The notes: generated by a model not told the origin, from the letters alone. DNA of 64,000 nt from Lytechinus pictus (GCF_037042905.1 NC_087250.1:8372001-8436000); one strand, 5' to 3'. Positions 4,441 through 64,000 are shown, counted from the stretch's first letter. A program made the numbers and translations.

Positions 4441-5380
4441 AAGCTGTAGATAAGGCTGTAAATAAAGTATTCATTAATCAAATCCATACTCAGCAATGGC
4501 AAGACAACTCCACCTAGCTAAATAAATTCAAGACAAGGCATGAAAAGATTCAAAGCAAAGCAAGAATTCAAAAGGTAGCGTCGCACATAAAGCACTGAAC
4601 GCAAAAAAAAAATTAGTAACACGACACGTTTGGGTGAGAAAGCATAAAGCGTCCCATCTGCTATGACTGATGAGAGGCAAAGCAACACCTGGGAAAAAGA
4701 GATACAAAATATTATCAAAATTCTTGTAAGGACCCACATACATAAGACAACATCACAAATCATAACAAAACCCATAAGGGTAAGATTGTGAGTTGCTAAA
4801 TGTGTAAAAAGCGCTATAAACGTAAAAAAAAATTGCTAGATTTAAGAGCATTTACATGTAGCTGAACATCCATGATCCATTTATGATGGAGGGCAAAACA
4901 GAAAGAGGAAGTATGGCTTCCCTTATATGATGGGCCGTGTACAAGGGCAGGGTAGACTGCGTGCTGGCGCAAAGAATTGGTGTACCCTTCGGATGGTCTG
5001 CGCTTATTACAGCAGAACTTAAAAATAACAGGCAGGTTCAAATTCAATTTATTCTTGATTATTCATTAAAACATAATCAAATTTTATGTTCGCATATACA
5101 ATATATTGATATCATTACAAGAAAAGGACTAAAGGAGGGCAACAAAAAAAGTTTACACTTGAAAAAAAAGCCTCCAAAAATATGTTTATTGAAGTAAATT
5201 ATCAAACCAAACATTTTGACTTGTCAACTGATGCAAGAAAAACACATGCTATTAACAGTTATACCAACACAATGCAAGAAAAAAATTACCATAGAAATGT
5301 GGATTATTTAAGCATCAGCAAGAACTTAGCTGATTTAAAAATGTAATATCTTGTAATGGTTGGCAGCTCAGTATGTACTG

Positions 5381-5684
5381 GGCCCCGTCTTACAAAGAGT
5401 TACGATTGGTCCCATCAATCGTAACTCTATGGAATTCCATCAGTGTCATAATTTTTTCTACAGAAAATTTGCACAATGTCTTTTGAAAACAAAAAGTACA
5501 GCAAGTTTTCAAGAAAACAAGGAATGTACGAATATGCATCATTGTTAGAAAATGTTTGAACAAACATGAATAATTATAGTTGCTGTTGCTGGCTTTCCAT
5601 AGTTGCGATTGAGGCAATCAATTGCAACTATGGAAAGCAAGCAACAGCAACTATAATTAGTTTTTGTCTTTGTAAGACGGGACC
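5381..5684. mobile_element. PIF/Harbinger-type MITE
   Basis: TIRs ggccccgtcttacaaaga / tctttgtaagacgggacc with a 3-bp TSD CTG. Absent at the paralogous site near 35560. Confidence 0.8.
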
Positions 5685-5743
5685 CTGTTCTGTCCCAATG
5701 AACTCAGAGGCTTGCAAATATTTTCCTGCATGCTCGTACTTAC

Positions 5744-5817
5744 TGTATTCAAATTCTCTTTGTGTAACTCATTCTTCTCTGTATGACATGGATCGGGATT
5801 ATGAACATCAGAAGATC
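5744..5817 (-). CDS. Paralogue A coding exon 3 (linker, GSSDVHNPDPCHTEKNELHKENLNT)
   Basis: ttctctag acceptor and GTAAGT donor, phase 1 to 0. Conserved with paralogue B exon 35701-35622 apart from substitutions and a 6-bp in-frame indel. Confidence 0.75.
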
Positions 5818-6769: not shown

Positions 6770-6865
6770 CTCTCGACTCTGTCCCCTTATCCTCACTTTC
6801 TTCTAAGATCTCCTTCTGTAATCCCTGCTGACGCTGCATGAACATTGGTGGGTTGACCTGTACCC
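6770..6865 (-). CDS. Paralogue A coding exon 2 (aKRAB C-terminal part, GVQVNPPMFMQRQQGLQKEILEESEDKGTESR)
   Basis: cacag acceptor and GTTTGT donor, 96 bp, phase 1-1. The G-x4-P-P-x-F-M motif resembles the PRDM9 KRAB continuation (P.PAFM). Conserved in paralogue B. Confidence 0.8.
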
Positions 6866-8386: not shown

Positions 8387-8522
8387 CAACTTCTATCATC
8401 ATCTCATAGTTTTCCTTGACATTCTGGATACAAATCCTCTCATAATCGCTGATATCTGCCCATTCATTGGCTGTGAAGTAAACCTGGACATCTGAATATT
8501 CATCTATCTTTGGCAAAGGCAT
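8387..8522 (-). CDS. Paralogue A first coding exon: ancestral KRAB (PRDM9/SSX-type aKRAB) domain
   Basis: MPLPKIDEYSDVQVYFTANEWADISDYERICIQNVKENYEMMIEV|G matches the KRAB-A pattern D-V-x-V-Y-F-T-x-x-E-W...N-V-K-x-N-Y. It has a GCCACCATG Kozak context, an in-frame upstream TAA, an acceptor before 8570 and a GTAGGT donor. Confidence 0.85.
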
Positions 8523-23087: not shown

Positions 23088-25186
23088 TTAACCAGTATGG
23101 ATTTGTTTGTGTACTGTGAGATTGGATTTTTCATTAAATGCCTTACCACATTGATCATATACATACATGTAGGGCTTCTCACCAGTATGGACTCGTTTAT
23201 GTCTTGTGAGGCTAGCTTTTCGACTAAACACTTTACCACATTGAACACATTCAAAGAGTTTCTCACCTGTATGGATGCGTTTATGTTTTGTGAGATCATC
23301 AGATCGATTAAATGCCTTACCACATTGATCACAAACATAGGGCTTCTCACCTGTATGGATCCATTTGTGTTTTCTCAATGAACTTCTGTCACTAAATGCC
23401 TTACCACACTGATCACACTCAAAGGGCTTCTCACCAGTATGGACTCGTTTATGGCTTGTAAGCCTAGCTTTTAGACTAAACACTTTACCACATTGAACAC
23501 ATACAAAGGGTTTCTCACCTGTATGGATGCGTTTATGTCTTGTGAGATCACCAGATCGATTAAATGCCTTACCACATTGATCACAAACATAGGGCTTCTC
23601 ACCTGTATGGATCCGTTTGTGTTTTCTCAATGAACTTCTGTCACTAAATGCCTTACCACACTGATCACACTCAAAGGGCTTCTCACCAGTATGGACTCGT
23701 TTATGGCGTGTGAGCCTAGCTTTTTGAATAAACATCTTACCACATTGAACACATGCAAAGGGTTTCTCACCTGTATGGATTCGTTTATGTGTTATGAGAT
23801 TGGATATTTCATTAAACGCCTTTCCACATTGATCACATAGATAGGGCTTTTTACCCGTATGGATGCGTTTATGTGTTTTAAGATGAGATTTATGATTAAA
23901 TGCCTTACCACATTGATCACATCGATGGGGCTTCTCACCTGTATGGATACGTTTGTGTACTGTGAGATTGGATTTTTTATAAAATGCCTTACCACATTGA
24001 TCACAAACATAGGGCTTCTCACCTGTATGGATCCGTTTGTGTTTTCTCAATGAACTTCTGTCACTAAATGCCTTACCACACTGATCACACTCAAAGGGCT
24101 TCTCACCAGTATGGACTCGTTTATGGCTTGTGAGCCTAGCTTTTTGAATAAACATCTTACCACATTGAACACATGCAAAGGGTTTCTCACCTGTATGGAT
24201 TCGTTTATGTGTTATGAGATTGGATATTTCATTAAACGCCTTTCCACATTGATCACATAGATAGGGCTTTTTACCCGTATGGATGCGTTTATGTGTTTTA
24301 AGATGAGATTTATGATTAAATGCCTTACCACATTGATCACATCGATGGGGCTTCTCACCTGTATGGATACGTTTGTGTACTGTGAGATTGGATTTTTTAT
24401 AAAATGCCTTACCACATTGATCACAAACATAGGGCTTCTCACCTGTATGGATCCGTTTGTGTTTTCTCAATGAACTTCTGTCACTAAATGCCTTACCACA
24501 CTGATCACACTCAAAGGGCTTCTCACCAGTATGGACTCGTTTATGGCTTGTGAGCCTAGCTTTTTGAATAAACATCTTACCACATTGAACACATGCAAAG
24601 GGTTTCTCACCTGTATGGATTCGTTTATGTGTTATGAGATTGGATATTTCATTAAACGCCTTTCCACATTGATCACATAGATAGGGCTTTTTACCCGTAT
24701 GGATGCGTTTATGTGTTTTAAGATGAGATTTATGATTAAATGCCTTACCACATTGATCACATCGATGGGGCTTCTCACCTGTATGGATACGTTTGTGTAC
24801 TGTGAGATTGGATTTTTTATAAAATGCCTTACCACATTGATCACATGCAAAGGGCTTTTCACCTGTATGGATTCGTGTATGTGTTGTTAGATGATTTACA
24901 GTAATAAACGCCTTACCACACTGATTACATACATAAGGTTTCTTTTCAAGTATCATATTTTCCATATTTCCTGTTTTCAAAATTATCTTTTCACCATGCA
25001 TAGAATCATTAATTTCACACATGGATTTTTGCATTTCTCCTTCAACAAACTTTAAAATGCTTTCCTTTGACGCATATGATGGCAAGACAACACCATTAAG
25101 CCCATGTTTGTACTTGAGATGCCTTGCTAAGATGAGAGGAATAGCATAGACTGATCCACAATACCCGCATCTGTAGATTTCACAAT
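23088..25186 (-). CDS. Paralogue B terminal exon: isolated C2H2 finger, spacer and 21 intact tandem C2H2 fingers (TGEKP linkers) plus one broken finger
   Basis: Lies in ORF 23088-25217. The ttttttctttaaag acceptor at 25187 is phase 1, matching the upstream exon ending at 34740. Confidence 0.93.
23561..24845 (-). repeat. Three near-identical 420-bp (5-finger) tandem blocks within the zinc-finger array
   Basis: Lines 23581/24001/24421 through 23941/24361/24781 are identical except at position 23708. Confidence 0.93.
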
Positions 25187-26398: not shown

Positions 26399-27245
26399 TA
26401 ATGCTATATTATTACTGTGCTGAAAGGACTAGGTGTATATATTACAAAGGGCAAGAATAACACACACACAAGGTATCCTTGGAACAGGGGAGCGTTTCAT
26501 GAAAGGACTTGTCAGACATTTTATCCTACAAGTACTGTTTTATCTGAGAGTTACTATGGTAACAGTGCCTCTTGGCCAATCATAATCAAGGAAAGTTGTC
26601 AGACCTGAGAACTTGTCAGACGAAAATTTCGATGCAATGCTCCTCAGATATAACATTCTACATTTCACAACGCATTAAAATAAAACATTTGCCAAAGCTG
26701 TTGTCATCCGAACCATCGTATCACACATATGACGGTGCAAACCCATTTTAGAGAAAATCGGCTTCAAAGTTTACTACAATTTCCAAACTTTGTTCCCCAG
26801 CCTTACAACATAATCCTTGAAAGAAAAATACATGATCGGAAAGACCAAGACAATTGCTTGACATTTGTAACTTCATTTTTACATAAAACCAAGAATCAGA
26901 GAAAATATCGCAAAAGAGCTACATACTTATAATCTTGGTTTGAGCTGTTTATATTTTCTTTGTACATGAAAGCCATAGGAAATGTAACAACCCTGACCGT
27001 GAATTAAATGCACGTTATCAGTCAAAACGTTGTATCGCTCTTCCACGTGCAAAGTCGATGACGGTTCGGCTGACCACGTATTTGCATATTAAGTGAACGC
27101 AGCTATTGTTTGCTTTGCTACTGTACTCGTTTCCAATGGGATTTGCGCATTTTATCAACAATTTGTATGGCATCGCCGTGAAAATCCCAACATATCTCAG
27201 AAACTAAAATAAATTGCTGCCTAGAAATTTAAGTATGTAGAACAG

Positions 27246-35621: not shown

Positions 35622-35701
35622 TGTATTCAAATTCTCTTTATGTAACTCATTCTTCTCTGCATGACATGTATTTCCCTGTTGATTATGAACGTCAGAAGAC
35701 C
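35622..35701 (-). CDS. Paralogue B coding exon 3 (GSSDVHNQQGNTCHAEKNELHKENLNT)
   Basis: ttctctag acceptor and GTAAGT donor, phase 1 to 0. Lies within ORF 35499-35828 and is conserved in paralogue A. Confidence 0.78.
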
Positions 35702-40088: not shown

Positions 40089-40184
40089 CTTTTGTCTCTG
40101 TCCCCTTATCGTCACTTTCCTCAATTATCTGTTTATGAATTCCTTGCTGACGCTGCATGAACATTGGTGGGTTGACCTGTACCC
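40089..40184 (-). CDS. Paralogue B coding exon 2 (GVQVNPPMFMQRQQGIHKQIIEESDDKGTETK)
   Basis: cacag acceptor and GTTTGT donor, 96 bp, phase 1-1. Paralogous to 6865-6770. Confidence 0.8.
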
Positions 40185-41631: not shown

Positions 41632-41767
41632 CAACTTGTATCATCATCTCATAGTTTTCCTTGACATTCTGGATACAAATCCTTTCGTAATCGCTGATAT
41701 CTGCCCATTCATTGGCTGTGAAGTAAACCTGGACATCTGAATATTCATCTGTCATTGGCAGAGGCAT
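41632..41767 (-). CDS. Paralogue B first coding exon: ancestral KRAB (aKRAB) domain
   Basis: MPLPMTDEYSDVQVYFTANEWADISDYERICIQNVKENYEMMIQV|G, with GCCACCATG context, an acceptor before 41815 and a GTAGGT donor at 41631. Confidence 0.87.
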
Positions 41768-42443
41768 GGTGGCATCACTTTACTTGGAATCCGAAGTGAA
41801 GAAACCAAGATTTTCCTAGGATGGAGAAGGATAAATTAAGACGAGTACCAAGTCTCATGCTTTATTTAGGATTCTTGCTAATCCCCCCCCCCATTCCCTT
41901 CTCATGGCTGTATTAACGGTCTATCCCCAGATACACAATTTCAGAGACAGTCTCCAGTTTGGGAGACCAATATCTATTTCCTCTGTTCTCATTTGCTGCA
42001 AAAGGATTACCTTGGCAGCAAATAAATATGTGATAAGCAGATTCCTCATGAAAAATTACCCCTTTCCACCGTCTACTTTAAAAATTCACCGTCTACTTTC
42101 GCTTTGAAAAGGATTTTTGTTGTCACCCACACTAAACAAATGGGCTTCTGACCTCAGTGAGATTTGCGTGCTGTCACCAAGCGAAAGATAATGACATCAA
42201 GATGGCTACGTAAACACGGTGGCAAATTTTTCCCGTCTTTTCGTAACATTTTTCTCGTTTTTTGAATGAATTCTTGTTTAAAGATGAAATTGATATCGTA
42301 GAAATGTCGGAAATGAAGTTGTATCCCATGTACATGATTTTAGGGCTAGATCTTTACTATTGTACTATGAGTGCCCATGGCCGATCCACGCCGTATACCG
42401 GTACGTGCCGTACGCCACCAGCACCGCGCCATTCGAACTCGAC

Positions 42444-42880
42444 ATTGAAAGATCAAGACTACAGTAGAAGGCTTCGTTCCTTGAAGTACAGTACAGAATG
42501 CGAAGAGGGGATATGATAAAGACGTACAAGATCATGATCAATTCAATGGCATTGATGATTTGAACAAGGACATGTTCTTTACATCTGCATCAACTCAGAC
42601 GACACGTGGACATCCACATGCAAATTGTATGTGAAGTCTAGAACTAGAAGCAGACTAACCCAGAGAGCTCCGGACCGCTCGCGGGCTGGAGCTCTCTGGG
42701 CCTGGGTTAGAATCAGACTGGATGTTAGAAAAAATACTTTCAAGTTTCAGTGCCAGAGTTGTAAATGACTGGAACTCCTTGCCGCAGAGATAGTTACTGC
42801 ATCAACGTTGGACAGATTCAAGTCACAGTTAGACAAGTTTTGGTCTGCAGTGCAATATACTCACCCTACTAACTCTGGCA
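42444..42880 (+). mobile_element. CR1-type LINE ORF2 3' fragment
   Basis: Frameshifted LKDQDYSRRLRSLK..RRGDMIKTYKI..TRGH..RLDVRKN.F..RVVNDWNSLP..IVTASTLDRFKSQLDKFW. Confidence 0.8.
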
Positions 42881-43210
42881 CAGCACACATTATATAGTTA
42901 GATGGAGATAGCAACAGTGATAGACCTGGAAACACGACTGCATAAGTAGGGCGTCTGGAGAATTTTTTTTTCTTCTTATTTCTAGAAAATATCACATTTT
43001 CTTTGTGAATTTGAAGAGAAATGACCTTCAGACTGACAGAAATGTAACATCTTTAAAAAACAAATCCAATTATTGGTTGCAAAAAAGAAGAATGAAATTA
43101 GGTCAATTTTCAGCATTTCTCTGCCATAGACTGTGTAGTTAAGAATAAGAAATGGACACACACAAATCCAAATTTTTAGCTTCCGAGAGCTGCTATAAAT
43201 TCATTATTAA

Positions 43211-45359
43211 AGGAGAATGAACCCCTTGAAACCAGCTGAATCCATATCAAAGAGAAAAATCAAAGAAACATATTGTTGAAAGTTTGAGGAAGATTGAATG
43301 AATAATAAGAAAGTTATGAGCATTTGAATGTCAAGATCACTAAATGCCATGTAGATTGGCAATGCGACCAAGATCTGTGATGTCGCACACGTACAACTCC
43401 CTCATTACTGTAACGATCCTGCAACTAGGATCGTGACGTAAACAATCAGCCCTGCGCATGACTATTGTTTACTCATTATTCATAGCTGTTGCGAGAATTT
43501 ATTCAACCGTGAGTATTATGTCTTTCGGATATTATTAGAAATTACTTAAGATTTCATATTCCAAAATGATTAATGTATTAGGTTTTAATATGAGACCTCT
43601 ATTTTTAATGAAGAAATGTTAGGAGATAAGTTGTTTTGCAGAATTGGTGTAGATATAGATTGAATACCGGTAATTCATCACTGGCTGTGTTTATGTACGT
43701 ACATGGTAATTTGCATAAGAGCGCAGCCGCGGCGTATTTGCATAAGTGCGGATGAGCGTTTGGAGTGCACACGTCCGATCGCAGCGCTGGCAGGTTTTGA
43801 TAGATTTTTGACGAATTCATATCTTTTTAAGTACTGATATGAATGGTTCTGTATATATTTCATTGCAAAAAGATATATTCTTTTGGAAACGTATCGACTT
43901 ATTGAATGTTTTGTAGTAATGAACGAGAAATTGAGAATAAACCGGCTTCAATAAAACACAGTTCGAGTTCTCTGTACATTATACGCTGCGCGTAGACGTG
44001 TGTGTGCTATCCAAACTCGCTCGGCGCACCGTTTTCACCTACGTCCGCAACTTTTCCATATAAATAAGAGACGTTTAATCGCGGGGCTGGCACAACAACG
44101 GAAATCTGACTGCAGAAGACTTGCCACGGGGAAGACGTTGGAAAACTTGGAAAGGTAAAAAGACGCAGGAAACAAGCCTATAGCCAAGGCCTATAGACGC
44201 TGGAAACCTCGATATGAATTTAATTAAGTCCCTATATTAACCCATATGTATGAATATGAGAATTCCCCAATAGAGGTCCAAATTAATTAGAGTATAGATC
44301 TTGCTATGATATACATTTTCTTAATAATTATTTTGGGCGAGCGACCTGAAGTAAATAGTCCAGGAATCAATCTCTTCGTATATATCAACGCCGGAATTAA
44401 CAGACGTGGAAACGAATGTCGAGACTGGGAAGCTGGAAATAGAATTTTTCTCTTAACAAGCTAGACGCCGGTTAGATTTGGAAAATTCTTATACTTGGAG
44501 GCCCAAAATAAAAGTTTAATAATTATCCATTATATTTCTCTGATAACAAATACATCTTAGAGCTTATTTGTAAATATTAGACATTGTTTACCTGTAACAG
44601 TGGCGAGTCAAGTAAAGTACATGTATATATATTTATGCAATTTGAATAATAAAGTGCACCATTATTTTTCTTTTTGCCATTGAAACTAAAATCTGAGTCA
44701 CAAACCCCTGTGTCTTTCTTTGCTGTGTACCCCCGTAGTCATATATTTTGACGAAACGACCCTTGATTGCAAATAATCTATAGCGAGCCGCTCTAGCATT
44801 TTCTTCCACTCTTATAATAATTCTCTTGGAAACTGCATGCTCGGAAGATATTGAGATAGACAAGAATGGAAATAGAGGAAAGCTCAGGTGATCCACCAAA
44901 GACTGAACACCATCCTGACGTAGAGGTCGGAATGGAAGAAATAAGCGAGAGCGGCGGCCGCTACATTACTTTGGTACTTATTTCACTTATATTCTCACTT
45001 TTATAGAGTCTATCACAAGGTGAGGTGTTCTCTTTATTTTTAAGAGAGGACAAGTACAGAGGTTTCACATTATATCATTGATGAATCGTTTGTCATATGA
45101 TTAGAAATAGAATGAGCAAAAAGAGATGTTTTGGGGTATATTTTCAGTGTCCAAAAGGGGAGAGTTGTTCATCTGTGACATAGATCTCGGTCGCATTGCC
45201 AATGGGAGGATCTCCATAGCATTAGTGATCTCGACATTCAAATGCTCATAATTCTTCTATTGCTGGTCCTATTTTACTCAAACTTTTGTTGATCTTATTC
45301 TTTGATTTTTCTGCTTTCACAAAAGCTAACTTGCTCCAAGTCAAGAGTTTCATTCTCCT
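43211..45359. mobile_element. Kolobok-like element; an uninterrupted copy lies in reverse orientation at 55801-56384
   Basis: TTAA|aggagaatgaa ... ttcattctcct|TTAA. Empty site attattaatgcc at ~51690. Confidence 0.75.
43409..44965. mobile_element. Solo LTR (Gypsy-like, 1557 bp)
   Basis: TGTAACG...CGCTACA termini and a 4-bp TSD TTAC. Absent from the 55801-56384 copy of the host element. Confidence 0.75.
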
Positions 45360-47952
45360 TTAATGCCAGAAACTTGTCCATTAAGAGATAGGCAATAGGA
45401 TTTTTTATGCTCTTTCTGATGGTATGATTTTTATAAAGATTTTGGAAACCAGATCACAATGAAAAATTCAACTAAGTGAAAAAAATTGTTCAAAACAGAA
45501 ATGTCATTTTCCCATAGAAAACGCATGGGGAAATGGCAATCTCAATTATTAAGGGTTTGCAATTTATCTCTAAATCCTTATTTCAAATTATCTTGTCCTT
45601 ACTGTCAAAAGAAGCCCCTGAATTTTCTCTTTCCATACATGCCAAACACATGAAACACAAGTTAATAATCAATTCAGATCACATTTTTCTAGCAGCCTGG
45701 ATTTCCCGAAAAAATGTGCCATATTTTCCCCTAAATCAGCCCGTTCTATGCTGACATTTTTCAGTGTGGCTTCAGACACCCTAGCCTAGCCCTAGCATAA
45801 TAAGTAATTCTAATAATTGCATTTTTCCAGTAGATCCGGTACCGGTATTACTTTAGCCTACTATTAATGGCATAATCGTGATATAGTCCCCAAATCCAAA
45901 AATGGGGATTATTAGAATCACACCTACAAGAACGCATGAAAATCACTTCCTTTCTCCAGAACACAGTCCCCAACTCTCGCACAGCTCGCACTCGAGAACT
46001 TGCGAAATGATAACACACACAAATGAAACACACTTACACTTGGATTCTCTCCCTATATATACTCGTGATACAGTCCCCACTCTACGGGAAATCAAGTTCA
46101 CTTTGCACGCAGTGGGGATAGCTCCAACAGTATATTATACTCGTGATACAGTCCCCTCACAACATAAAATCGTGCTCGTTCGACAAGGGGATGGGGACAG
46201 TTTCCCAGTGCAACGTGACAAGGAAGACTCATTCAAAACCTTCGGGAATTATTGTCATCATATTATATTATCATTATTATCATTATATTATTATTGTTAT
46301 TAAATCATAATTATCATTATTGTTATTATCATTATTATTATTGTTATTTAATCATAATTATTATTATTATTGCTATTATCATTATTATTATTGTCAATAT
46401 TATTATTATCATTATTAATATTATTATTACTATCAACATCATATATCATTATTATTTTTTATTATTGTTGTTGTTATTATTATTATAATAATGATGATAA
46501 TATTATAAATTATTATATTATTATTATTATTCTTTTATCATTGAAAATGTGCCCCTTCCATCCATTCTGTTCCTTGTATTTCATTTAATTCCTTCAAATG
46601 AAATCACTGTAGACTCATAATAACGTTTGGGTATTAATTATTATCATAATTATTATCATCATTGGCATCATTATCATTATTGTTGTTGTTATTATTGAAA
46701 GAGTCACCCCAAAACATTAAAGTAATCAATACAAATATGTGACGGAAATGAAAAGTAAAGTAATGATAACAACAATAGTATAATGATGGGGATGATGATA
46801 ATAAAGATTAATAACAATAATGATGTTGATAATAATTATGATAAAGGTTAATATAATAATAATAATAGAGAATAATAACAATAATAATAATTATTATAAA
46901 ATAATAAATAAAAGATAAATAATGTTAACAAAAAATAAGGATAACAATATTAGGTAAATAATAAATAAATACCATAAAAAATAATGGCAATAATGATGAT
47001 AATAATTACGATAATACCCAAAAGTTATGAATGAGTCTACAGTGATTTCATTTGAAGGAATTAAATGAAATACAAGGAATGGACTGGATGGAAGGGGCGC
47101 ATTTCCAATGATAAAGAATAATAATGATAATAATGATATAATAATTTATTATACTATTATCACTATTATGATGATAATAACAACAATAAAGAATAATATT
47201 TATTATGATGATAGTAATAATAATATAATAAAAATAACAATGATAATAACAACAGCAATACTAATATAATAAGGGATATTAACAATATTAATAACAATAT
47301 AATAAAGAATAATAACCATAATAACAACAACAATAAAGAATAATGATTAATGATGATGAGATAATAACAATATAATACAGAATAATAACCATAATAACAA
47401 CAACAATAATAAAGAATAATAATGATATATGATGATATTTATAAAAATAATTATATTGATAATGATAAAAAAATATTGATAATAAAAATAATAATAAAAA
47501 CAATAATAATAATATAATAAAGGATAATAACAATAATAATAACAACAATGATAAAGAATAATAATGATGTATGATGATGATAGTAATAATAAAATAAATA
47601 ATAACAATAATGATAATTATGATTAAATAACAATAATAATGATAATAACAATGATAATTATGATTGAATAACAATAATAATAATTATGATAAAATAATAA
47701 TGATAAAATGATAATAATGATAATATAATATGATGATGACAATAATAATAATAATTCCCGAAGGTTTTGAATGAGTCTTCCTTGTCACGTTGCACTGGGA
47801 AACTGTCCCCATCCCCTTGTCGAACGAGCACGATTTTATGTTGTGAGGGGACGGTATCACGAGTATAATATACTGTTGGAGCTATCCCCAATGCGTGCAA
47901 AGTAAACTTGATTTCCCGTAGAGTGGGGACTGTATCTCGAGTATAGCTATAC

Positions 47953-50900
47953 CAGGGAAGTGTTATAGAAGGAAATGAAACTCGAAAAGTAAGATTTTAT
48001 TGCCCCCTTTAGGCAAATCCGAAGTGAAATTGAGAGGGGACACCCTGCTGATAACTGCTGATAAGTCTCTCACCAGCCCCCAAAATACCCCTGCAGGCCG
48101 CAATGATTACGCAACCAAGGCTTACTTTTATCGCTTTCCCTGCCTCGCTCCTAATCTCTGCTCTCCTAGCCAAACGACTTCGTCTTTTGATCTCACTACC
48201 TCGGAGCCGATAACATGACGTCATTTACATGATTTCTCAATAGCTGAGTTCAGAGTGAAAAGTTATATGTACACGTTTTGGCTGCGCACTACTCTGTTGA
48301 TTGCTGGAGACATGCGTAGTTATCACATTCGCACCCAGTGTATTCTAACGATTCAGCCGATATCTCATTCATCAAATTCACCCTTCGTAAACCGGAGTAA
48401 CAAGGTTTGTTATCTATTTGTTTACATTTTTGTATATGATATGATATATAGATTTCATTGTATGACCCGCTAATCTTGGCTATTCTTCTGTTATATGTAA
48501 GTGAAGAGGAATAAAATATCTTTATGATGGTAGTTGTCTCATTGGCGTGTTCTCGCGTGCCTAAAAGTTATGGTACTTCAAAGTTGGTTGATTTTCACCG
48601 AAATCTCCAGTTTGGCCGTTGATCGACTCGATTCGAGCGCCACGCGTGCATGGAAAGCGACTTTCGTGCAGCTGAATAATGGTATAAGATTGCATGGAAA
48701 TGACCATGATTTATTTATTTCAGTTTATGTTCCCTTATTAAATCATTAAATGCTGTGTTTGGTGGGCTTTGGGAAGTTTCATTTTAAGTTCAGTTTCGAT
48801 GGGAACGATTTTGCGTGCGGCTCAGGCTACACAGCTACCGGGATAGCGTAGGCCCGGAGCGCAGGCTTACGAGGTGTATACAGTCCCCGAAGACGAAGTC
48901 TGGTTGCAATGACAATGCAGGAGACTAACTTGTTAAGTTTTAAAGATATTTGAATTCAATTATTTATCTTGAAACCAAGAATTGTGTTTCGAAGAATATC
49001 GTCAATGTCACTGTGTTTACAATCGGCGTCCATCTTAGCAGATAAGCCTATCCCATATTGCACTGTGTGAGTCCTGTACTTCCGCACTGTCGCGACCGTG
49101 AGCGCGCGGACTTTACGACCGACCGCAGGGGATCATTTTACGAGCTTGCCTGATAGAGTGGGATTAAGCCAATTATGGAGAATAACAACGGCTCCGCGCA
49201 TGCTACAAAGCAGGGCTCCACACTAACCCTTTTTTTCTACTGGTCCAACCTATTCATGTCGGACCAGTAGATACCCAGTTTTTCAATTTTTTACTGGTCC
49301 GAACCTAAAATCTACTGGTCCCCAAAAATAAAGAAAACATTAAAAAAATGTGTGAGTTTATTTTGCTGTCCTTTCTTGTTACCCCCCCCCCCCCCAAAAA
49401 AAATGAAGGAATGAAAGACAGAAGAAAGAAAGAATAAAAGAAAGGAAGGAGGAAAAAAGCAAAGGTAAAGAAAGGATAGATGTGAAGAAAAAAAAGAAAG
49501 AACTAAAGAAAGAAAGAAGGAAAGAAAGAAAGAACAAAATAAGAAAGATAGAACAAAAGAAAAAAGGAAGGAAAGAAAGAAACAGAAAGAAAGAAAGAAA
49601 AAAAGAAGGAAAGAAATGAAGCAAGCAATAAAGTAAGAAAAAACAAAAGACAGAAAGTAATGAAAAAAAGGAAAGAAAGATGCAATAAAACATGAAAGAA
49701 AGGGTAAAAGGAGAGATGGAAAGAAGGAAAAAAGAAAGAAAGAAAGAATAAAAGAAACAAAGGAAGAAAAAGGTAAAGAAAAATGTGAAGGAAGGAAAAA
49801 AAAGCTAAACAAGGAAAGGAAGGAAAGAAAGAACAAAAGAAAAAAAAGGAATGAAGGAGAGAAATGAAGCAAGCAATATAGAAAGAAAGAACAAAAGACA
49901 AAGTAATGAAAGAAAGAAGGAAAGAAGCAATAAAAAAGAAAGGGTAAAAGGAGAGATGGAAAGAAGGAAAACAGAAAGAAAGAATTGAAAGAAGAAATCA
50001 AGAAAAGGGAAAATGATAGAAGGAAAAAAAGAATGAAGGAAAGAAATAAAGAAGGAAGGAAGCAAGCAAGCAATATAAAAAAGAAAGAAAATGTAAAAGA
50101 ATAGATGAAAGGAAGAACAAAAAGAAAGACCGAACTTCAAAGAAAGAAAGAACGAAAGAAGAAAGGAAAGGAAGCAAGCAGTAAAAAAAAATGAAAGAAA
50201 AGGTAAAAGGATAGATGGAACAAAGGGGAAAAGGAAAGAACAAAAGACAGAAAGAAGAGAGGAAGGAATGAAAGAGAGAAAGGGCTGAAAGAAGGAAGAA
50301 ATAAAAACAAGAAAGGATGGATGGAATGAAGAAAGAAACACAGAAAGTAACAAAGAATGAAGGAAAGAAAGGGAAAAAGAAGGAAAGGAAGAAAGAAAGA
50401 AGAGATAAATATAGGATGGATGGGACTCAAGAATTAAAGAAAGAAGGAAATCAAAAAAGAAAGAGCATTAGAAATAGAGAAAATATTAAAAGGACAGAAA
50501 GAATGAAAGAACGAAAGACAAAGAAAAGGGAAAATTAAAAAAGAAAGACAGTAACAAAAAATTAAAGAAGAGAGGGAAGAAACAAAGAAAGATTGAAAAG
50601 AAAGATTGAAAGAAAACAGAGGTTAGCCAAGCTTCGTTCGTGCAGCCAGTAGAAAATTTACCATGTGGGCTGTGTGGCTGGCTAGCTAGCCGTATGTACA
50701 CTGTATGTTACCCTATTAAAAATTGCATGCGATTCATTCTGTGTGTGTTCTGTGTGTAAATGCCAGAATTTGACGGGAGGAAATGGTTTGCAATTTGAGT
50801 CATGGAATATTTTTTATGTTTATGTTGGACTAGCAAATTTGACAATTTCTGGAAAAGTTACTGGCCCAACAATAGTTTTTATTACTGTTTATGTCGGAAC

Positions 50901-51103
50901 CATAAGTCTTGCTATTTTTGGAAAAATTACTGGCCCGACAATGATATTTTTTACTGGTCATGTCGGACCAGTAAATCTTGCTATTTCTGAAAATCTACCG
51001 GCCCGACATCGATTTTTACCGGTCTGGGACCGTCGGACCGGCGCTAGTGTCGAGCCACAAAGGGAACTTTTCGAGTTTCATTTCCTTCTATAACACTTCC
51101 CTG
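47953..51103. mobile_element. Non-autonomous DNA transposon with a 38-bp perfect TIR and a 7-bp TSD (P/Galileo-like)
   Basis: GCTATAC|cagggaagtgttatagaaggaaatgaaactcgaaaagt ... acttttcgagtttcatttccttctataacacttccctg|GCTATAC. It contains a hAT-like insert (~49211-51056) with a purine-rich tract. Confidence 0.7.
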
Positions 51104-52280
51104 GCTATACTGTTGGAACTGTCCCCACTGCGTGCAAAGTGATCTGTGTATCCCATAGCGCGGGGACTGCATCACGAGTATACTATACTGTTGAAACTGT
51201 CCCCACCGCCGTGAAAATCAAACTTGATTTCCCGTAGAGTGGGGACTGTATCACGAGTATATAATAGGGAGAGAACCCAAGTGTAAGTGTGTTTCATTTG
51301 TGTGTGTTATCATTTCGCAAGCTAAAGAGCTGTGCGAGAGTTGGGGACTGTGTTCTGGAGAAAGGAGGTGATTTTCATGCGTTCTGGTAGGTGTGATTCT
51401 GATAATCCCCATTTTTGGATTTGGGGACTGAAAAAAATTATTTTTCTTATTTCAAAAAAATATCACAATTTCTTTGTGAATTTGAAGAGAAATGACCTTC
51501 AGACGACAGAAATGTAACATTTTTGAAAAAAATCCAATTATTGGCTGCAAAAAAGAAGAATGAAATTAGGTAAATTTTCAGCATTTCTCTGCCATAGACT
51601 GTGTAGTTGGTACTAAAAAAGTTAGTAGTTAAGAAATGGACACACACAAATCCAAATTTTTAGCTTCCGAGAGCTGTTATAAATTTATTATTAATGCCAA
51701 AAACTTGTCCATAAAGAGTCCAATGGGATTTTTTATGCTCTATCTGATGGTATGATTTTTATAAAGATTTGGAAACCAGATCACAATGAAAAATTGTGAC
51801 AAAGTGAAAAAAATTGTGCAAAACAGAAATTTCATTTTCCCATAGAAAACGCATGGAGAAATGGCAATCTCAACACACACAAAAATAAGGGTTTGCAATT
51901 TATCTCTAAATCCTTATTTAAAATGATCATATAAACTTGTCCTTACTGTCAAAAGAAGCCCCTGAATTTTCTCTTTCCATACATGCCAAACACAAGTTAA
52001 TAACAGGGGCCGCGGAACCGGGGGGGGGGGGGGGGCTGGGGGGGCTTCAGCCCCCCACTTTTTTTCCAAAACCGTGTACAAAAATGTAAAAATTACCATA
52101 TGATTGTGATTTTTCGCATGGTCAGCCCCCCCCCCACTTTGAAAACCGTTCCGCGGCCCCTGAATAATCAATTCAGATCACATTTTTCTAGTAGCCTGAA
52201 CTTCCCCGAAAAAATGTGCCATATTTTCCCCTAAATTAGCCTGTTTATGCTGACACTTTTCAGTGTGGCTTCAGACACCC

Positions 52281-52808
52281 TAACCCAGAGAGCTCCCGTC
52301 CGCGCAGCGGGCGGGAGCCCAGAAGCTCACAGTGTATTCTACCATTGCCACCGGACATGGGTGATTTATGGTCTAAATATTTCTCCAAATGAATTGTGAA
52401 AACAAAAAGTGTACAATTACCACGATTATATGGATGAAGGTCTAGCGAGTGGCAGATTCCTGACATCTGAGCACAGTCTGGAACCTCAAAAAAACGAAAA
52501 GTTCTCTGCTTCTACCCCGTCTCGATCGGCCATTTTTGTTAAAAATCGTAACAAAACGGCCGATCGAGACTGGGTAGAAGGAGAGAACTTTTGGTTTTTT
52601 TGAGGTTCCAGACTGTGCTCAGATGTCAGGAATCTGCCACTCGCTAGACCTTCATCCATATAATCGTGGTAATTGTACACTTTTTGTTTTCACAATTCAT
52701 TTGGAGAAATATTTAGACCATAAATCACCCTTGTTCGGTGGCAATGGTAGAATACACTGTGAGCTTCTGGGCTCCCGCCCGCGCAGCGGGCGGGAGCTCT
52801 CTGGGTTA
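52281..52808. mobile_element. 528-bp near-perfect palindromic MULE-like MITE
   Basis: taacccagagagctccc...gggagctctctgggtta with a 9-bp TSD CAGACACCC. Empty site at ~45773. Confidence 0.8.
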
Positions 52809-53044
52809 CAGACACCCTAACTATCACGATTATATGCCCTATTATTACTTACTAATAGTAGGCTATTATTATTATTAATAATAATAGCCTACTATTAGTA
52901 AGTAATAATAGGGCATATAATCGTGATAGTTAGGGTGTCTGTAACCCAGAGAGCTCCCGCCCGCGCAGCGGGCGGGAGCCCAGAAGCTCACAGTGTATTC
53001 TACCATTGCCACCGAACAATGTAATTATTAATTACATTAACTCA

Positions 53045-58082: not shown

Positions 58083-58209
58083 TCAAAGACGAAAAAGGGA
58101 CAGCTGAATCAACATAGGCCTAGATCAAAACTCTTGAGAGAAAAAGAAATCCCCTGAAATGGAAATTCGGCAGAGAATATGAAGTGTGGGTTTTACTCTT
58201 TTTTTAATC

Positions 58210-59357
<1,148 letters not shown>

Positions 59358-61447
59358 CTATTCATAACATGCCTTACCATATTGATCACATATGAAGGGC
59401 TTTTTACCTGTATGAGTTTGTTTATGTGCAGTGAGCTGTTGTATTTGATTGAATGCCTCACCACATAGATTACATACATAGGGCGTTTCACCTGTGTGTA
59501 TGCGTTTATGTGTTTTAAGATGAGATTTATGATTAAATTCTTTACCACACTGATCACATACATGGGGCTTCTCACCAGTATGGACTCGTTTATGTCTTCT
59601 GAGGCTACTTTTTCGACTAAACACCATACCACATTGATCACATACAAAGGGTTTCTCACCTGTATGGATTCGTTTATGTCTAGTGAGATCTCGTATTTGA
59701 CTAAAAGCCTTCCCACATTGATCACATACACAGGGCTTCTCACCTGTATGGATGCGTTCATGTGTTTTAACATGAGATTTAAGCTTAAATGCCTTACCAC
59801 ATTGATCACAATGATAGGGCTTCTCACCTGTATGGATACTTTTGTGTACTATGAGATTGTTTTTTCCTTTAAATGCCTTACCACAATGATCACATACATA
59901 GGGCTTTTCACCAGTATGGACTCTTTTATGTATTGTAAGAGTACATTCATGATTAAATGCCTTACCACATTGATCACAAAGATAGGGCTTCTCACCTGTA
60001 TGGAACCGTTTGTGTGTTCTCAATGAACTTCCATCAGTAAATGCCTTACCACACTGATCACACTCATAGGGCTTCTCACCAGTATGGACTCGTTTATGTC
60101 TTCTGAGGGTACCTTTTCGACTAAACACCTTACCACATTGATCACATACAAAGGGTTTCTCACCTGTATGGATTCGTTTATGATTTGTGAGATCATTAGA
60201 TTGATTAAATGCATGACCACATTGATCACATACATAGGGCTTCTCACCTGCATGGATGCGTTTATGTGTTTTGAGACAAGATTCTTGATTAAATGCCTTA
60301 CCACACTGATCACACTCAAAGGGCTTCTCACCAGCATGGACTCGTTTATGGGTTGTGAGGCTACCTTTTTGATTAAACATCCTACCACATTGAACACATA
60401 CAAAGGGTTTCTCACCTGTATGGATTCGCATGTGTGTTCTCAATGAACTTCTAACACTGAATGCCTTACCACACTGATCACAAACATAGGGCTTCTCACC
60501 TGTATGGACTCGTTTATGTCTCGTGAGATCTCGTATTTGACTAAAAGCCTTCCCACATTGATCACATACATAGGGCTTCTCACCTGTATGGATGCGTTCA
60601 TGTGTTTTAACATGAGATTTAAGCTTAAATGCCTTACCACATTGATCACAATGATAGGGCTTCTCACATGTATGGATACTTTTGTGTACTATGAGATTAT
60701 TTTTTTCTTTAAATGCCATACCACAATGATCACATACAAAGGGCCTCTCACCAGTATGGACTCTTTTATGTAATGTAAGATTATATTCATGATTAAATTC
60801 CTTACCACACTGATCACATACATAGGGCTTCTCACCTGTATGGATACGTTTGTGCACTATGAGATTGATTTTTTCATAAAACGCCTTACCATATTGATCG
60901 CATACAGAGAGATTCTCACAAGTATGGAGTCTTTTATGTATTGTAAGAGTATAGTTACGATTAAATGCCTTGCCACACTGATCACAAACATATGGCTTCT
61001 CACCTGTATGGATCTGCTTGTGTCTTCTCAGTGTACTTCTATCACTTAATGCCTTACCACACAGATCACACTCAAAGGGCTTCTCACCTGTATGAGTTAG
61101 TTTATGGATTGTGAGGCTACCTTTTTGACTAAACATCCTACCACATTGAACACATACAAACGGTTTCTCATCTGTATGGATTCGTTTATGTGTTTTAAGA
61201 TGTGATTCAAGTATCATACTTTCCCAATTTCTTGTTTTCAAAATTCCCTTTTCACCATGAGTAAAATCATTAATTTCACACATAGATTTTCGTATTTCTC
61301 CTTCAACAAACTGTAGAATGCTTTCCTTTGACGCATATGATGGCAAGACAACACCATTAAGCCCATGTTTGTACTTGAGATGCCTTGCTAAGATGAGAGG
61401 AATAGCATAGACTGATCCACAATACTCGCATCTGTAGATTCCAGAAT
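59358..61447 (-). CDS. Paralogue C terminal exon: isolated C2H2 finger, spacer and ~20 intact tandem C2H2 fingers; upstream exons lie beyond the window
   Basis: Lies in ORF 59358-61454. The ttttcttgatag acceptor at 61448 is phase 1, as in paralogue B. The N-terminal finger and spacer are highly similar to B. Confidence 0.92.
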
Positions 61448-61695
61448 CTATCAAGAAAAAACAATATTACATATTCATCAATAATTTTAATGATTTATTG
61501 AGGTGACAGGTGCCCTATTACGTTCATCTATCATCAAAACTAAAATCCACCGCTATAACACGGGAACCCAAGTATCTCAGGCAACCCCTATTTTGTTTTC
61601 CTCATTTAATCAGTGGTCAGCACCTTGCAGCTTCCCATGAGAGATTATTTATTTCAGCCGTACTCCTCATTTTCTTACATCAGAGTTTAAACTTT

Positions 61696-62702
61696 AAACA
61701 AGTGGAATGCCTCTGGCCGTCTCACCTGCATCACGCGATTCAATATAGCAGCAGTGCTGATTTTGAAAACTACTATAACTCGCACAAGATGTTCAGTGAT
61801 ACTTGGTTACTCTTATTTCCACGTTTTATGAACTAGACCAATACACTTATAGAGATATGATGGCAATTCAACAAATACCCCCAACGTGGCCAAAGTTCTT
61901 TGACCTTACATGACCTTTGACCTTGATCATGTGACCTGAAACTTGCACAGGATGTTCAGTAATACTTGATTACTATTATGTCTAAGTTTCATGAATCAGA
62001 TCCATAAACTTTCAAAGTTATGATGGTAATTCAACAGATACCCCCAATTCGGCCAAAGTTCATTGACCCTAAATGACCTTTGACCTTGATCATGTGACCT
62101 GAAACTTGCACAGGATGTTCAGTAATACTTGATTACTATTATGTCTAAGTTTCATGAATCAGATCCATAAACTTTCAAAGTTATGATGGTAATTCAACAG
62201 ATACCCCCAATTCGGCCAAAGTTCATTGACCCTAAATGACCTTTGACCTTAGTCATGTGACGTGAAACTCATGCAGGATGTTCAGTGATACTTGATTAAC
62301 CTTATGTATAAGTTTCATGAACTAGGTCCATATATTTTCTAAGTTATGATGACATTTCAAAAACTTAACCTTAGGTTAAGATTTTGATGTAGATTCCCCC
62401 AACATGGTCTAAGTTCATTGACCCTAAATGACCTTTGACCTTGGTCATGTGACATGAAACTCAGGCAGGATGTTCAGTAATACTTGATTAACCTTATGGC
62501 CAAGTTTCATGAACTAGGTCCATATACTTTCTAAGTTATGCTGTCATTTCAAAAACTTAACCTCAGGTTAAGATTTGGTGTTGACGCCGCCGCCGCCGTC
62601 GCCGTCGCCGCCGCCGCCGCCGTCGCCGCCGCCGCCGCCATCGCCGCCGCCGTCGGAAAAGCGGCGCCTATAGTCTCACTCTGCTATGCAGGTGAGACAA
62701 AA
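61696..62702. mobile_element. Helentron-associated (HINE-like) element with 163-bp tandem repeats and a (GCC)n microsatellite
   Basis: Near-identical to 11634-12592. subTIR gtctcacctgcat/atgcaggtgagac and a 3' hairpin. Absent from the paralogue B intron at ~25450. Confidence 0.72.
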
Positions 62703-64000
62703 AAGGACAGGAAAAGATAGGAAATTATACTTCTTTAAAAATAATTCCATGTCCAAAAGTCATGAAGACCAAAATGAAAGTCTGAACGACGCAAAATTAC
62801 ACAGAATTCGCGATGTAAAAAATTTTAACTGAAAACTGGCCCTACAAGTTGCAAAGTGCTGGACACATGGGGAGCTAGCTGTGCTTTTTCTCTCTAGCTC
62901 TCTCTCCCCCTCTCAAGGAGGAAGATTACAGTGTGCCCCTATTTACTTTATCTCAGTTGTGTCCAAAAGTGGTTTCAAGTATAAATGCTAGGTTTTCACC
63001 ATGCTATATTACTGTGCTCAAAGGACTAGGTGTGTATATTACAAAGGGCAAGAATAACACACACAAGGGATCCTTGGAACATGGGAACGCTACATGAAAG
63101 GACTTGTCAGACATTTTATCCTACAAGTACAAGTACTGTTTTATCTGACAGTTACTATGGTAACAGTTCCTCTTAGCAAATCATAATCAAGGAAAGTTGT
63201 CAGACCTAAGAACTTGTCCGACGAAAATGTTGATGAAATCGCTCCTCAGATCTAACATTCCACATTTCACAACATATTAAAATAAAACATTTGCCAAAGC
63301 TGTTGTCATCTGAACCATCGTATCACACATGACGGTGAAAACCCATTTTAGAGAAAATCAGCTTCAAAGTTTACTATAATTTCTACCCTTTGTTCCCAGC
63401 CTTACAACATAATCCTTGAAAAAAAATACATGATTGGAAAGACCAAGACAATCACTTGACATTTGTAACTTCATTTTTATGTAAAACCAAGAATCAGAGA
63501 AAATATCGCAAAAGAGCTAAATACTTATAATTTTGGTTTGAGCCGTTTATATTTTCTTTGTACAAGACATAGGAAATGCGACAACCTTGACTGTGAATTC
63601 AATGCACGTCATCAGTCAAAACATTGTATCACTCTTTCACCTGCAAAGTCAATGACGGTTTGGCTTACCAAGTATTTGCATATTAAGTGAGCGCAGCTGT
63701 TGTTTAATTTGCTTTGCTACTGTACTCGTTTCCAATAGGACTTACACAGTTTATCAACAATTTGTAAGGCATCGCTGTGAAAATCCAAACATATCTAAGG
63801 AAAATAAAATAAATTGCTGCCTAGAAATTTTATCACATAAAGAACAGATCTTTTACTTTCAATTTCTGCAAAAATCTCAAAATCAATTTATTTTACCATA
63901 ATCGACTGATACAACGGTTCGGATGAGTGCCAACGATGTGATCTTACTCCTCAGTTTTCCAGACCCAAATATTACTGTAGCATTCTAGTTTTCAAGAGCC

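Follow-up and report, generated by a model that had tools for sequence, protein, structure and literature searches.

Which genes occupy this stretch of sea-urchin DNA, and from what did they descend? The window, the whole stretch of 64,000 nucleotides analysed here (C6:8372001-8436000), lies in the 812-Mb genome of Lytechinus pictus, and the database proteins closest to its products belong to sea urchins of the genera Lytechinus and Strongylocentrotus. A preliminary description, made from the sequence alone, had seen in it a tandem cluster of at least three paralogues with an ancestral-type KRAB (aKRAB) exon and zinc fingers (ZNF), formed by segmental duplication. Its observation is confirmed and its interpretation is supported. 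We put at roughly 80% the probability of a fuller explanation: the genes form a cluster of PRDM9-descended, SET-less paralogues that has grown by duplication, has changed at the DNA-contact positions of its fingers and may encode adaptor proteins. The family is without a published description in the literature searched.

Gene structure and growth of the cluster

With 200 kb of flank added to the window (264 kb), six genes can be recognised in the cluster; one of them is inverted and the other five lie on the minus strand. All six consist of five GT-AG exons, the borders of all 24 introns being canonical, and their ORFs, of 939-1093 aa, are intact. Exon 1 encodes an ancestral-type KRAB-A box, exon 2 a PxxFM (aKRAB-B) motif, exons 3 and 4 linkers, and exon 5 a single lone finger followed by 20-24 fingers. 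The KRAB exon is separate and the whole TGEKP-linked C2H2 array lies in one terminal exon in 6/6 genes, which is the layout of KRAB zinc-finger proteins (KZFPs); the T-G-E-K-P linker consensus is found in 122-128 of 132 fingers. Exon lengths differ between the six genes by 6, 42, 117, 159 and 273 nt, every one a multiple of 3.

The window does contain three paralogues, all on the minus strand, but only gene B lies in it whole. Its exon 1 (41632..41767; coding, with the ATG at 41767) encodes the aKRAB-A box matched by Pfam KRAB and ends in phase 1, with the donor GT after 41632. The splice joint 41631/40183, covered by 41, 51 and 24 reads in three RNA runs, leads to exon 2 (96 nt; 40089..40184), which has RNA joints on both sides and AG/GT borders and encodes a PPMFM motif of aKRAB-B-like type and, after it, an acidic stretch. 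The joints 40088/35700 and 35622/35154 delimit the linker exon 3 (80 nt; 35622..35701), and 34740/25186 connects the linker exon 4 (418 nt; 34740..35157) with exon 5 (23088..25186). Exon 4 contains an internal 159-nt tandem duplication (TRF, period 159). Exon 5, defined by its ORF and Pfam matches, encodes the lone atypical C2H2 finger, 21 fingers (zf-C2H2 on 21 stretches) and the stop; its array is a 420-bp (5-finger) higher-order repeat in 4.5 copies with 89% matches (TRF).

Gene A enters the window with exons 1-3, placed by exon projection: exon 1, the aKRAB-A box (8387..8522, with ATG and GT), exon 2 (6770..6865, AG/GT borders) and exon 3 (74 nt; 5744..5817). Its exon 4 (C6:8369903-8370278) and exon 5 (C6:8367309 downwards) lie ahead of the window start, and its ORF is intact over 1011 aa. 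The last exon of gene C (59358..61447; ORF and exon projection) encodes the lone finger and 20 fingers, while exons 1-4 lie past the window end (C6:8436090-8440297); the ORF of 939 aa is intact. Degenerate finger remnants occur 3' of the gene C stop (58128..58681, minus strand; blastn to the array and a weak Pfam zf-H2C2_2 match), and 20 finger motifs are found past the stop codon of gene A.

The reported colinear blocks were reproduced by self-alignment, at ~71-89% identity and interrupted by copy-specific dispersed repeats. All blocks are in the same orientation (self-blastn): 5192-8903 with 35210-42162 (81-89% identity), 14352-22282 with 42376/53036-58210 (71-89%), 22999-25447 with 59285-61693 (78%), 25471-25794 with 62705-62994 (78%), 26393-27230 with 62993-63830 (89%) and 34489-34642 with 63845-64000 (86.5%). 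Their E-values, from 1e-8 to 0, are far beyond chance. The KRAB exons of A and B differ, as described, at 3 of 45 residues (K5M, I6T and E44Q), none within DVQVY..ENYEMM. The head-to-tail order on the minus strand holds for A, B and C, but the next copy outside the window (gD) is inverted.

A 7.26-kb dispersed repeat (27231..34488) interrupts intron 4 in gene B alone, being missing at the homologous site in C and D; at least seven near-full-length copies, 95-99% identical, occur on C16, C7, C10, C15, C12, C4 and C2. A mosaic of dispersed and simple repeats (42443..53036) is confined to the B-C spacer, has no counterpart upstream of A, and matches many chromosomes in pieces at 87-99% identity. 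These insertions had been called transposable elements (TEs). They are dispersed repeats, but Pfam found no TE protein domain in 295 window ORFs, including those of the 7.26-kb repeat; thus, 'TEs' here denotes non-coding repeats.

Genome-wide, counting with the KRAB exon gave 28 loci, so further members exist beyond the six local paralogues; these six were modelled in full, and the other 22 loci are exon matches alone. In 28/28 cases the same strand carries a lone-finger terminal exon 5.7-25 kb further downstream. Three of these genes carry PR/SET and one a PHD domain. KENYEMM-coding sites number 22 across the genome vs 0 in a reversed control. Two clusters on C21 have pairwise identical scores.

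The cluster probably expanded through successive duplications of units of 27-37 kb, each a gene with its spacer; one inversion would have taken place, and the dispersed repeats would have been inserted later, copy by copy. Tandem paralogues arising from duplicated units of gene and intergenic DNA are what had been proposed. A tree of the six genes has support of 28-77% and resolves poorly. As for the birth-and-death mode suggested earlier, the expansion is evident, but 'death' is visible only in the finger remnants beyond the stops of genes A and C.

Probable descent from PRDM9

The linker and lone finger of the cluster genes are homologous to sea-urchin PRDM9-like proteins. Exon 4 of gene B matches the pre-SET linker of a Strongylocentrotus purpuratus PRDM9-like protein (P0003) at 39-51% identity (tblastn), and the first 100 aa of exon 5 match sea-urchin proteins, one of them PRDM9-like. 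Like PRDM9 (Meisetz), the genes combine a KRAB, a post-KRAB motif, a linker and a lone finger with a single-exon C-terminal array whose contact residues change fast, all in homologous parts. A full-length PRDM9-like gene with KRAB, PR/SET and fingers lies at the cluster edge (C6:8183400-8193558), at a distance of 55 kb and in the same orientation, and its exon phases permit the loss of internal exons. PRDM9 has been said to be unique in invertebrate genomes (PMC3971581), which does not hold here.

Unlike PRDM9, the cluster genes lack PR/SET exons. No SET domain was found by Pfam in the 295 window ORFs, the SET region of P0003 had no tblastn match across the 264-kb cluster, and no PR/SET remnant was detected there, the SET exons of the local PRDM9-like gene reaching only E 0.93 (tblastn). 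RNA joints splice exon 4 straight to the finger exon with no PR/SET between them, and P0002, a Lytechinus protein, is built in the same way, without SET. Because the PR/SET exons are missing, the products are predicted not to be methyltransferases. Births of PRDM9 paralogues have also been described in cnidarians and teleosts (bioRxiv 10.64898/2026.09.07.749791); since the truncated paralogues of that cnidarian preprint are defined by their SET domain, the urchin form, with KRAB and fingers and no SET, is a different truncation.

It is conceivable, though improbable, that the genes are meiotic modulators or competitors of PRDM9, binding DNA and PRDM9 partners without methylating histones, rather than general KRAB-ZNF-like regulators. 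Such a role would suit the KRAB, linker and lone finger retained from PRDM9, the presence of full-length PRDM9-like genes beside the SET-less ones in each of the three C6 cluster regions, and contact residues that diversify as in PRDM9 (PMC2779102). However, the cluster KRAB is 67% identical to that of the neighbouring PRDM9-like gene, the basic stretch that follows PxxFM in PRDM9-like genes has been replaced, and 24 or more copies are many for a modulator.

Transcription and selection

RNA-seq junction reads cover all four introns and confirm the splice pattern at the level of the cluster, not of each copy, and RNA depth over exon 1 is strand-specific (16, 19 and 13.5 vs 0.6, 0.1 and 0.8). 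Nearly all reads over exons 3-4 of gene B carry paralogue bases (T at 35660 in 190/192, T at 35100 in 120/120), and a 17-mer unique to gD is present in one group of reads across the exon 2-3 junction (25, 14 and 8). The RNA evidence therefore concerns cluster members jointly rather than A, B or C singly.

Pooled pN/pS was 0.29-0.60 over the N-terminal exons (1 to the pre-finger part of 5). A dN/dS contrast between KRAB and linker exons, a comparison proposed in the preliminary description, was absent (0.35 vs 0.29-0.60). Among the fingers, entropy is highest at positions -1, 2, 3 and 6, and contact codons reached a pN/pS of 1.60 vs 0.32 for framework codons (131 links, 132 fingers), a suggestive value from a minimum spanning tree on non-contact sites rather than a formal test.

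These data bear on whether the copies are decaying, truncated pseudogenes of PRDM9 duplicates that lost SET, a reading that we consider very unlikely. In its favour, other animals commonly have truncated PRDM9 paralogues (bioRxiv 10.64898/2026.09.07.749791), finger remnants follow genes A and C, and few RNA reads carry the bases diagnostic of gene B itself. Yet all six ORFs are intact with canonical intron borders, every indel is in frame, pN/pS is below 1 in each N-terminal exon and low in framework codons, spliced and strand-specific RNA comes from cluster members, and P0002 shares their architecture. The copies are thus not the relics that had been considered earlier.

Type of KRAB and place among zinc-finger families

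The KRAB of these genes lies at the margin of the Pfam model (PF01352): where 20.4 bits is the cut-off, gene A scores 21.1 and gene B 20.9, and a longer ORF containing the KRAB falls below that limit (19.9 bits). A genome-wide scan with the same model returned no match at E <= 0.001, and the KRAB exon of the neighbouring PRDM9-like gene had no Pfam match. The cluster KRAB is one residue short of the profile (34 residues on 35 positions, 37 on 38), which fits the aKRAB gap at the VMLE site of KRAB-A (PMC8835667). Read against that paper, it has V-K-E in place of the MLE motif and so lacks the signature of a modern KRAB. As MLE is reported to be required for KAP1 binding (PMC8835667, PMC3971581), an ancestral-type KRAB one position short at this site would not be expected to recruit TRIM28.

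Exon 2 reads ..NPPMFM.. in 6/6 paralogues and thus contains the PxxFM of aKRAB-B (PMC8835667), where S. purpuratus PRDM9 entries have PPDFM or PPAFM (Table S1 of that paper). Its 31 aa had no Pfam match, SSXRD included, at E <= 5, and the available S. purpuratus PRDM9 rows of Table S1 carry no SSXRD entry. By eye, an acidic I-x-E-E-S-D/E stretch is common to exon 2 and those rows. An AF2 model of exon 1 has three helices (mean pLDDT 73.9); Foldseek returned no match to it at E <= 0.001, and in VIA-align the ZNF93 KRAB (7z36_D) ranked 20th with Z 3.1, less than 1 Z from unrelated top rows (rmsd 3.4 A, 34 residues aligned, 18% identity).

That the genes belong to the vertebrate-type KRAB-ZNF family proper, with the same founder and TRIM28-dependent repression, has little to recommend it and is less probable still than decay. 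The Pfam KRAB at the cut-off, the shared gene layout and, as leads only, the chordate KRAB clusters that the atlas offers as look-alikes (scores of 0.75-0.81, below 0.9) agree with it. Against this stand the position missing at the site of MLE, a motif reported to be needed for KAP1 binding (PMC8835667, PMC3971581), the PRDM9-specific linker and lone finger, and the nearest proteins found, which are echinoid PRDM9-like and ZNF models.

With tetrapod KZFPs the genes have several features in common: KRAB-type exons upstream of one large TGEKP-linked C2H2 exon, tandem clusters from segmental duplication in repeat-rich DNA, contact residues that change fastest, and a presumed derivation from PRDM9/Meisetz through SET loss (PMC4592553). 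The host here is a sea urchin, however, the KRAB is of ancestral type, the PRDM9 linker and lone finger are retained, and the genes seem to have arisen independently, out of echinoid PRDM9. Compared by description only, the coelacanth aKRAB-KZNF genes, the third aKRAB subgroup of Lorenz et al. 2022 (PMC8835667), also join KRAB-A, a PxxFM-type B and fingers without SET, are expanded in a single genome and frequently have the E at position A34 seen here, but belong to a different phylum. The five S. purpuratus entries in Table S1 of that paper are all of PRDM9 type, none of the SET-less urchin type. The FiNZ genes of cyprinid fish (Wells et al. 2023, PMC10547256) resemble the urchin genes in their lineage-specific expansion and in joining a short N-terminal domain exon to a finger-array exon, and were proposed to track transposable elements, but have no KRAB similarity. 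Sea-urchin ZNFs are called poorly characterised in that paper, in whose main text PRDM9 occurs 0 times.

The copies might also be read as uncollapsed haplotypes, or as a mis-assembly of what are really one or two genes. Sea-urchin genomes are highly heterozygous, and the identical scores on C21 mean that some duplication elsewhere could be artefactual, but at this locus such an error is the least credible reading of all, because non-coding mismatch divergence is 3.2% between g1 and g2 and 8-12% in all other pairs (gaps excluded), finger number (20-24) and contact residues vary between arrays, exon 4 has 1 to 4 repeat units depending on the copy, each copy has private repeat insertions, and six copies stand in series, one inverted; they are separate paralogues.

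Under the PRDM9-descended reading, the genes would have kept the KRAB-A exon, the PxxFM exon, the acidic linker, the lone finger and the terminal C2H2 array, and lost the PR/SET exons. The copies appear to have been maintained as genes, their arrays probably remodelled through internal block duplication, with amino-acid change apparently quickest at DNA-contact positions. We infer that the arrays bind differing DNA sequences, repeats being the leading guess for their targets. The aKRAB module may recruit PRDM9-type partners to the bound sites without the writing of H3K4/K36 methylation, which would make these proteins an adaptor or regulator family like the KRAB zinc fingers, arisen independently in echinoids.

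The SET-less urchin genes parallel, in an invertebrate, the step from which the large vertebrate KRAB zinc-finger family is believed to have started. More tentatively, echinoids may have independently re-run that founding step, a SET-less PRDM9 duplicate giving rise to at least two dozen clustered genes whose arrays, diversifying under selection, track fast-changing targets such as TEs or recombination-related sites, and which work through the ancestral KRAB and PRDM9-type partners, not TRIM28. If this is true, sea urchins would be a living model of the transition from PRDM9 to KZFPs, which is otherwise only inferred.

Tandem gene copies and their transcription

Self-comparison of the window confirmed the colinear, same-orientation blocks proposed in the preliminary description. 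These pair 5192-8903 with 35210-42162 (81-89% identity), 14352-22282 with 53036-58210 plus one short piece at 42376 (71-89%), 22999-25447 with 59285-61693 (78%), 25471-25794 with 62705-62994 (78%), 26393-27230 with 62993-63830 (89%) and 34489-34642 with 63845-64000 (86.5%). KRAB-like exons are located on the minus strand at 8387-8522 (gene A) and 41632-41767 (gene B), and differ, as had been described, at 3 of 45 residues, all of them outside the core. Long zinc-finger ORFs occupy 23088-25217 and 59358-61466. The window contains exons 1-3 of gene A, gene B in full and only exon 5 of gene C.

A 7.26-kb stretch (27231-34488) is present solely in intron 4 of gene B, and at least seven near-full-length copies of it, with 95-99% identity, were found on other chromosomes. 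It is non-coding, carries an internal inverted segment and ORFs without a Pfam-recognisable domain, and resembles a non-autonomous element of large size that has been mobile recently. The insert in the B-C spacer is a mosaic of repeats, pieces of which match many chromosomes at 87-99% identity. A Pfam scan of 295 ORFs for transposase, reverse transcriptase and integrase domains returned none; the region is therefore rich in transposable elements, as previously proposed, with respect to non-coding repeats only. The sequence upstream of gene A (10684-12545) and intron 4 of gene C (61689-62601) share a 163-bp tandem repeat, with up to 96% identity between the two sites, a placement that is inconsistent with the main duplication. 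Positions 1-2144, inside intron 3 of gene A, are GC-rich (53% vs approximately 36% elsewhere) and contain a 246-bp unit repeated twice at 99.6% identity, without a counterpart in gene B.

Three stranded RNA-seq runs carrying the same species label were mapped on 24950-44900, accepting reads from 95% identity. They yielded four joints on the minus strand, with GT-AG ends: 41631/40183 (41, 51 and 24 reads in the three runs), 40088/35700 (13, 11 and 5), 35622/35154 (28, 40 and 27; three border letters differ) and 34740/25186 (6, 8 and 5). Exon depth was strand-specific, with values over 41600-42265 of 16, 19.3 and 13.5 vs 0.61, 0.10 and 0.84 in the respective runs. With the borders set by these joints, gene B is an intact ORF of 942 codons in five exons. 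The ATG and KRAB-A box are in exon 1; exon 2 (96 nt) contributes the ..NPPMFM.. motif and an acidic stretch, and exon 5 a lone atypical finger followed by 21 fingers; between them lie exon 3 (80 nt) and exon 4 (418 nt), the latter with an internal duplication of 159 nt.

Paralogue exons are 92-98% identical, compared to the 95% threshold for reads. Diagnostic sites in gene B exons 3-4 almost always show the base of the paralogues (T in 190 out of 192 reads at 35660 and in 120 out of 120 at 35100), and among the reads that join exons 2 and 3, one group (25, 14 and 8) holds a 17-mer unique to gD, another gene of the cluster. Transcription and splicing in the five-exon pattern are therefore assignable to cluster members as a family and not to A, B or C singly. 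Either gene B is weakly expressed in the RNA samples, or the allele of the RNA donor differs from the assembly. Reads oriented the other way (minus-strand first mates, depth about 7-8) were also recorded at 36272-36937 and 38270-38935, in the B-specific part of intron 2, with a 447-base skip (36372/36820) that has non-canonical ends. They may represent a repeat-derived or antisense transcript.

The cluster was read across the window (C6:8372001-8436000) plus 200 kb of flank, 264 kb in total. Six five-exon genes were identified in this region of contig C6, confirming the proposed tandem array of paralogues with an ancestral-type KRAB (aKRAB). Their KRAB exons are at C6:8268167 (g1), C6:8304845 (g2), C6:8380522 (gA), C6:8413767 (gB) and C6:8440297 (gC) on the minus strand, and at C6:8459780 (gD) on the plus strand. 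When the exons of gene B were projected onto the other five genes, all introns showed canonical borders. The ORFs are intact, encoding 978, 1093, 1011, 942, 939 and 970 aa from g1 to gD, and every length difference between corresponding exons is a multiple of three (exon 2, 96 or 90 nt; exon 3, 80 or 74 nt; exon 4, 259, 376, 418, 535 or 691 nt). The copies are not haplotypes, because non-coding mismatch divergence reaches 3.2% between g1 and g2 and 8-12% in the remaining pairs. In a tree of 519 coding sites, the six genes are close to one another (p-distance 0.035-0.086) and are separated by 0.24-0.27 from a neighbouring PRDM9-like gene; its internal nodes have only 28-77% support and do not establish an order of duplications. 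About 7-9 kb before the window start, 3' of the gene A stop codon, 20 finger motifs in three blocks (C6:8363001-8364861) look like a disabled continuation or a duplicate of the gA array.

An ancestral-type KRAB and the relationship to PRDM9

The two KRAB exons of the window score at the Pfam cut-off (21.1 and 20.9 bits vs a gathering threshold of 20.4), and both align one residue short of the profile positions. Lorenz et al. (2022, PMC8835667) define the aKRAB by precisely this missing residue, at the VMLE site, together with PxxFM downstream of KRAB-A. Both features are present in the cluster, with PxxFM in all six genes. The same study recognises three aKRAB groups, namely PRDM9, SSX and the coelacanth KZNFs, and all five of its Strongylocentrotus purpuratus entries belong to the PRDM9 type. 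KRAB did not stand out among the matches of the fold searches, and when PDB sequences were searched with the KRAB profile, only a chance-level chromo-domain match (E 0.84) was retrieved. A whole-genome Pfam KRAB search (E <= 0.001) gave no matches, with controls equally silent, and is thus uninformative on absence. The look-alikes retrieved by atlas comparison were chordate KRAB clusters, whose scores of 0.75-0.81 serve as leads only.

The part of the finger exon preceding the array matches four proteins, each of sea-urchin origin: ZNF models from Lytechinus variegatus (two) and L. pictus (one), and an S. purpuratus 'PRDM9-like' model with SET domains. The latter shares 39-51% identity with the cluster genes in exon 4 and 49% in the lone-finger region, and its SET region has no match in the 264-kb region. 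Searching the genome with this SET region retrieved three PRDM9-type loci on C6, 91-94% identical to the query: C6:8183400-8193558 (minus strand, 55 kb from g1), C6:15068692-15076166 and C6:20166200-20174968. All three combine PRDM9-type PR/SET exons with a KRAB exon and a terminal exon bearing the lone finger; their exons are mutually 92-93% identical, and the sequence around these is more diverged or does not align. This would mean that several full-length PRDM9-like genes coexist in one invertebrate genome, the first locus being the one read in detail.

In that locus, the KRAB exon is accompanied by a homologous linker exon, by SET exons and by a lone finger followed by 10 fingers. The end of its linker exon and the start of its terminal exon are both in phase 1, matching gene B, so the reading frame survives the loss of internal exons. 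When its SET exons were compared with the cluster, the best match had an E value of 0.93. Because of the homology in the linker and lone finger, the shared phases and the missing SET matches, we infer that the six genes are SET-less descendants of the PRDM9 lineage.

Members across the genome

In the 811.7-Mb genome, the KRAB exon was found at 28 sites (29 rows, one being a second match in an intron of gene A), and a KENYEMM-coding pattern at 22 sites, compared to none for the reversed control. All 28 KRAB sites have a terminal finger exon, detected through the lone finger, 5.7-25 kb downstream on the same strand. Besides the six genes of the local cluster, there are seven members at 19.2-19.5 Mb and five at 13.8-14.45 Mb of C6, five on C21, two on C17 and the three PRDM9-like genes. 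PRDM9-type SET exons lie between KRAB and fingers in 3 out of 28 members and a PHD exon in one (C17:863449), while the remaining 24 are without SET or PHD by these searches, gene models having been built for the six local genes only.

In the C17 member (C17:854219-878585), the PHD-finger exon sits between KRAB and the lone finger, and two Lytechinus proteins (P0001 and P0004) share this KRAB-PHD-finger layout, with PHD in place of SET. The former SET slot has taken up another chromatin domain. About 40 further PR/SET-like exon matches, with 38-67% identity to the PRDM9-like SET, were observed on contig C8 (for example, at 7.45-7.66, 22.75-22.80 and 24.69-24.74 Mb), two of them near lone-finger-like terminal exons; they may constitute a second expanded SET-finger family. 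On C21, the members at 3.57-3.73 Mb (minus) and 11.93-11.98 Mb (plus) have pairwise identical scores and open-frame lengths, which could reflect either duplication in the assembly or a large inverted duplication that happened recently.

Among longer proteins, the KRAB exon search scored one candidate, an L. pictus 'uncharacterized protein' (96% identity). The 252-aa L. pictus 'uncharacterized protein' P0005 corresponds to the first four exons of gD-type genes; it repeats exons 3-4 and lacks fingers. This KRAB-linker model shows that public gene models split or truncate the SET-less family, missing it as such.

Coding constraint, finger arrays and implications

Pooled pairwise pN/pS values were 0.35 for exon 1, 0.29 for exon 2, 0.60 for exon 3, 0.43 for exon 4 and 0.39 for the pre-array part of exon 5, indicating moderate constraint throughout. 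The suggested dN/dS contrast between KRAB and linker exons did not emerge, as the KRAB exon (0.35) showed no clear difference from the others (0.29-0.60). Across 132 fingers, the framework is nearly fixed and entropy is highest at positions -1, 3, 6 and 2 (3.1, 3.1, 2.9 and 2.4 bits). On a minimum spanning tree linking the fingers, pN/pS was 1.60 at the four contact codons vs 0.32 at the 21 framework codons; since the tree was built on non-contact sites, faster amino-acid change at contact codons is only suggestive. The arrays contain higher-order repeats of 420 bp (gene B) and 252 bp (gene C), and their contact-residue strings are distinct.

That KRAB zinc-finger genes arose from PRDM9 by SET loss has been inferred from vertebrate data. 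According to Wolf et al. (2015, PMC4592553), KRAB-ZFPs are believed to derive from Meisetz/PRDM9 in this way and are, with few exceptions, confined to tetrapods; Liu et al. (2014, PMC3971581) describe PRDM9 as unique in invertebrate genomes. In cnidarians, PRDM9 paralogues both full-length and truncated, defined by the SET domain, have been described in a 2026 preprint (10.64898/2026.09.07.749791), the available portion of which does not mention echinoderms. Sea-urchin ZNFs are called 'poorly characterised' in the main text of Wells et al. (2023, PMC10547256), which does not mention PRDM9, and in the accessible part of Oliver et al. (2009, PMC2779102) the sea urchin appears only for germ-line Prdm9 expression. 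In the searchable literature, subscription journals and bioRxiv supplements being outside reach, we found no echinoderm family of SET-less KRAB-finger genes described.

The tandem cluster is real, and its interpretation in the preliminary description holds. It is an invertebrate group of intact SET-less PRDM9 descendants beside full-length PRDM9-like genes, and the L. pictus genome holds both stages together, with the full-length genes adjoining the descendant clusters. The sea-urchin cluster parallels the inferred birth of the vertebrate KRAB zinc-finger genes. The role of an ancestral KRAB joined to a diversifying finger array is now testable in an experimentally tractable animal, as are the tracking of repeats by such families and their interplay with PRDM9-directed recombination.
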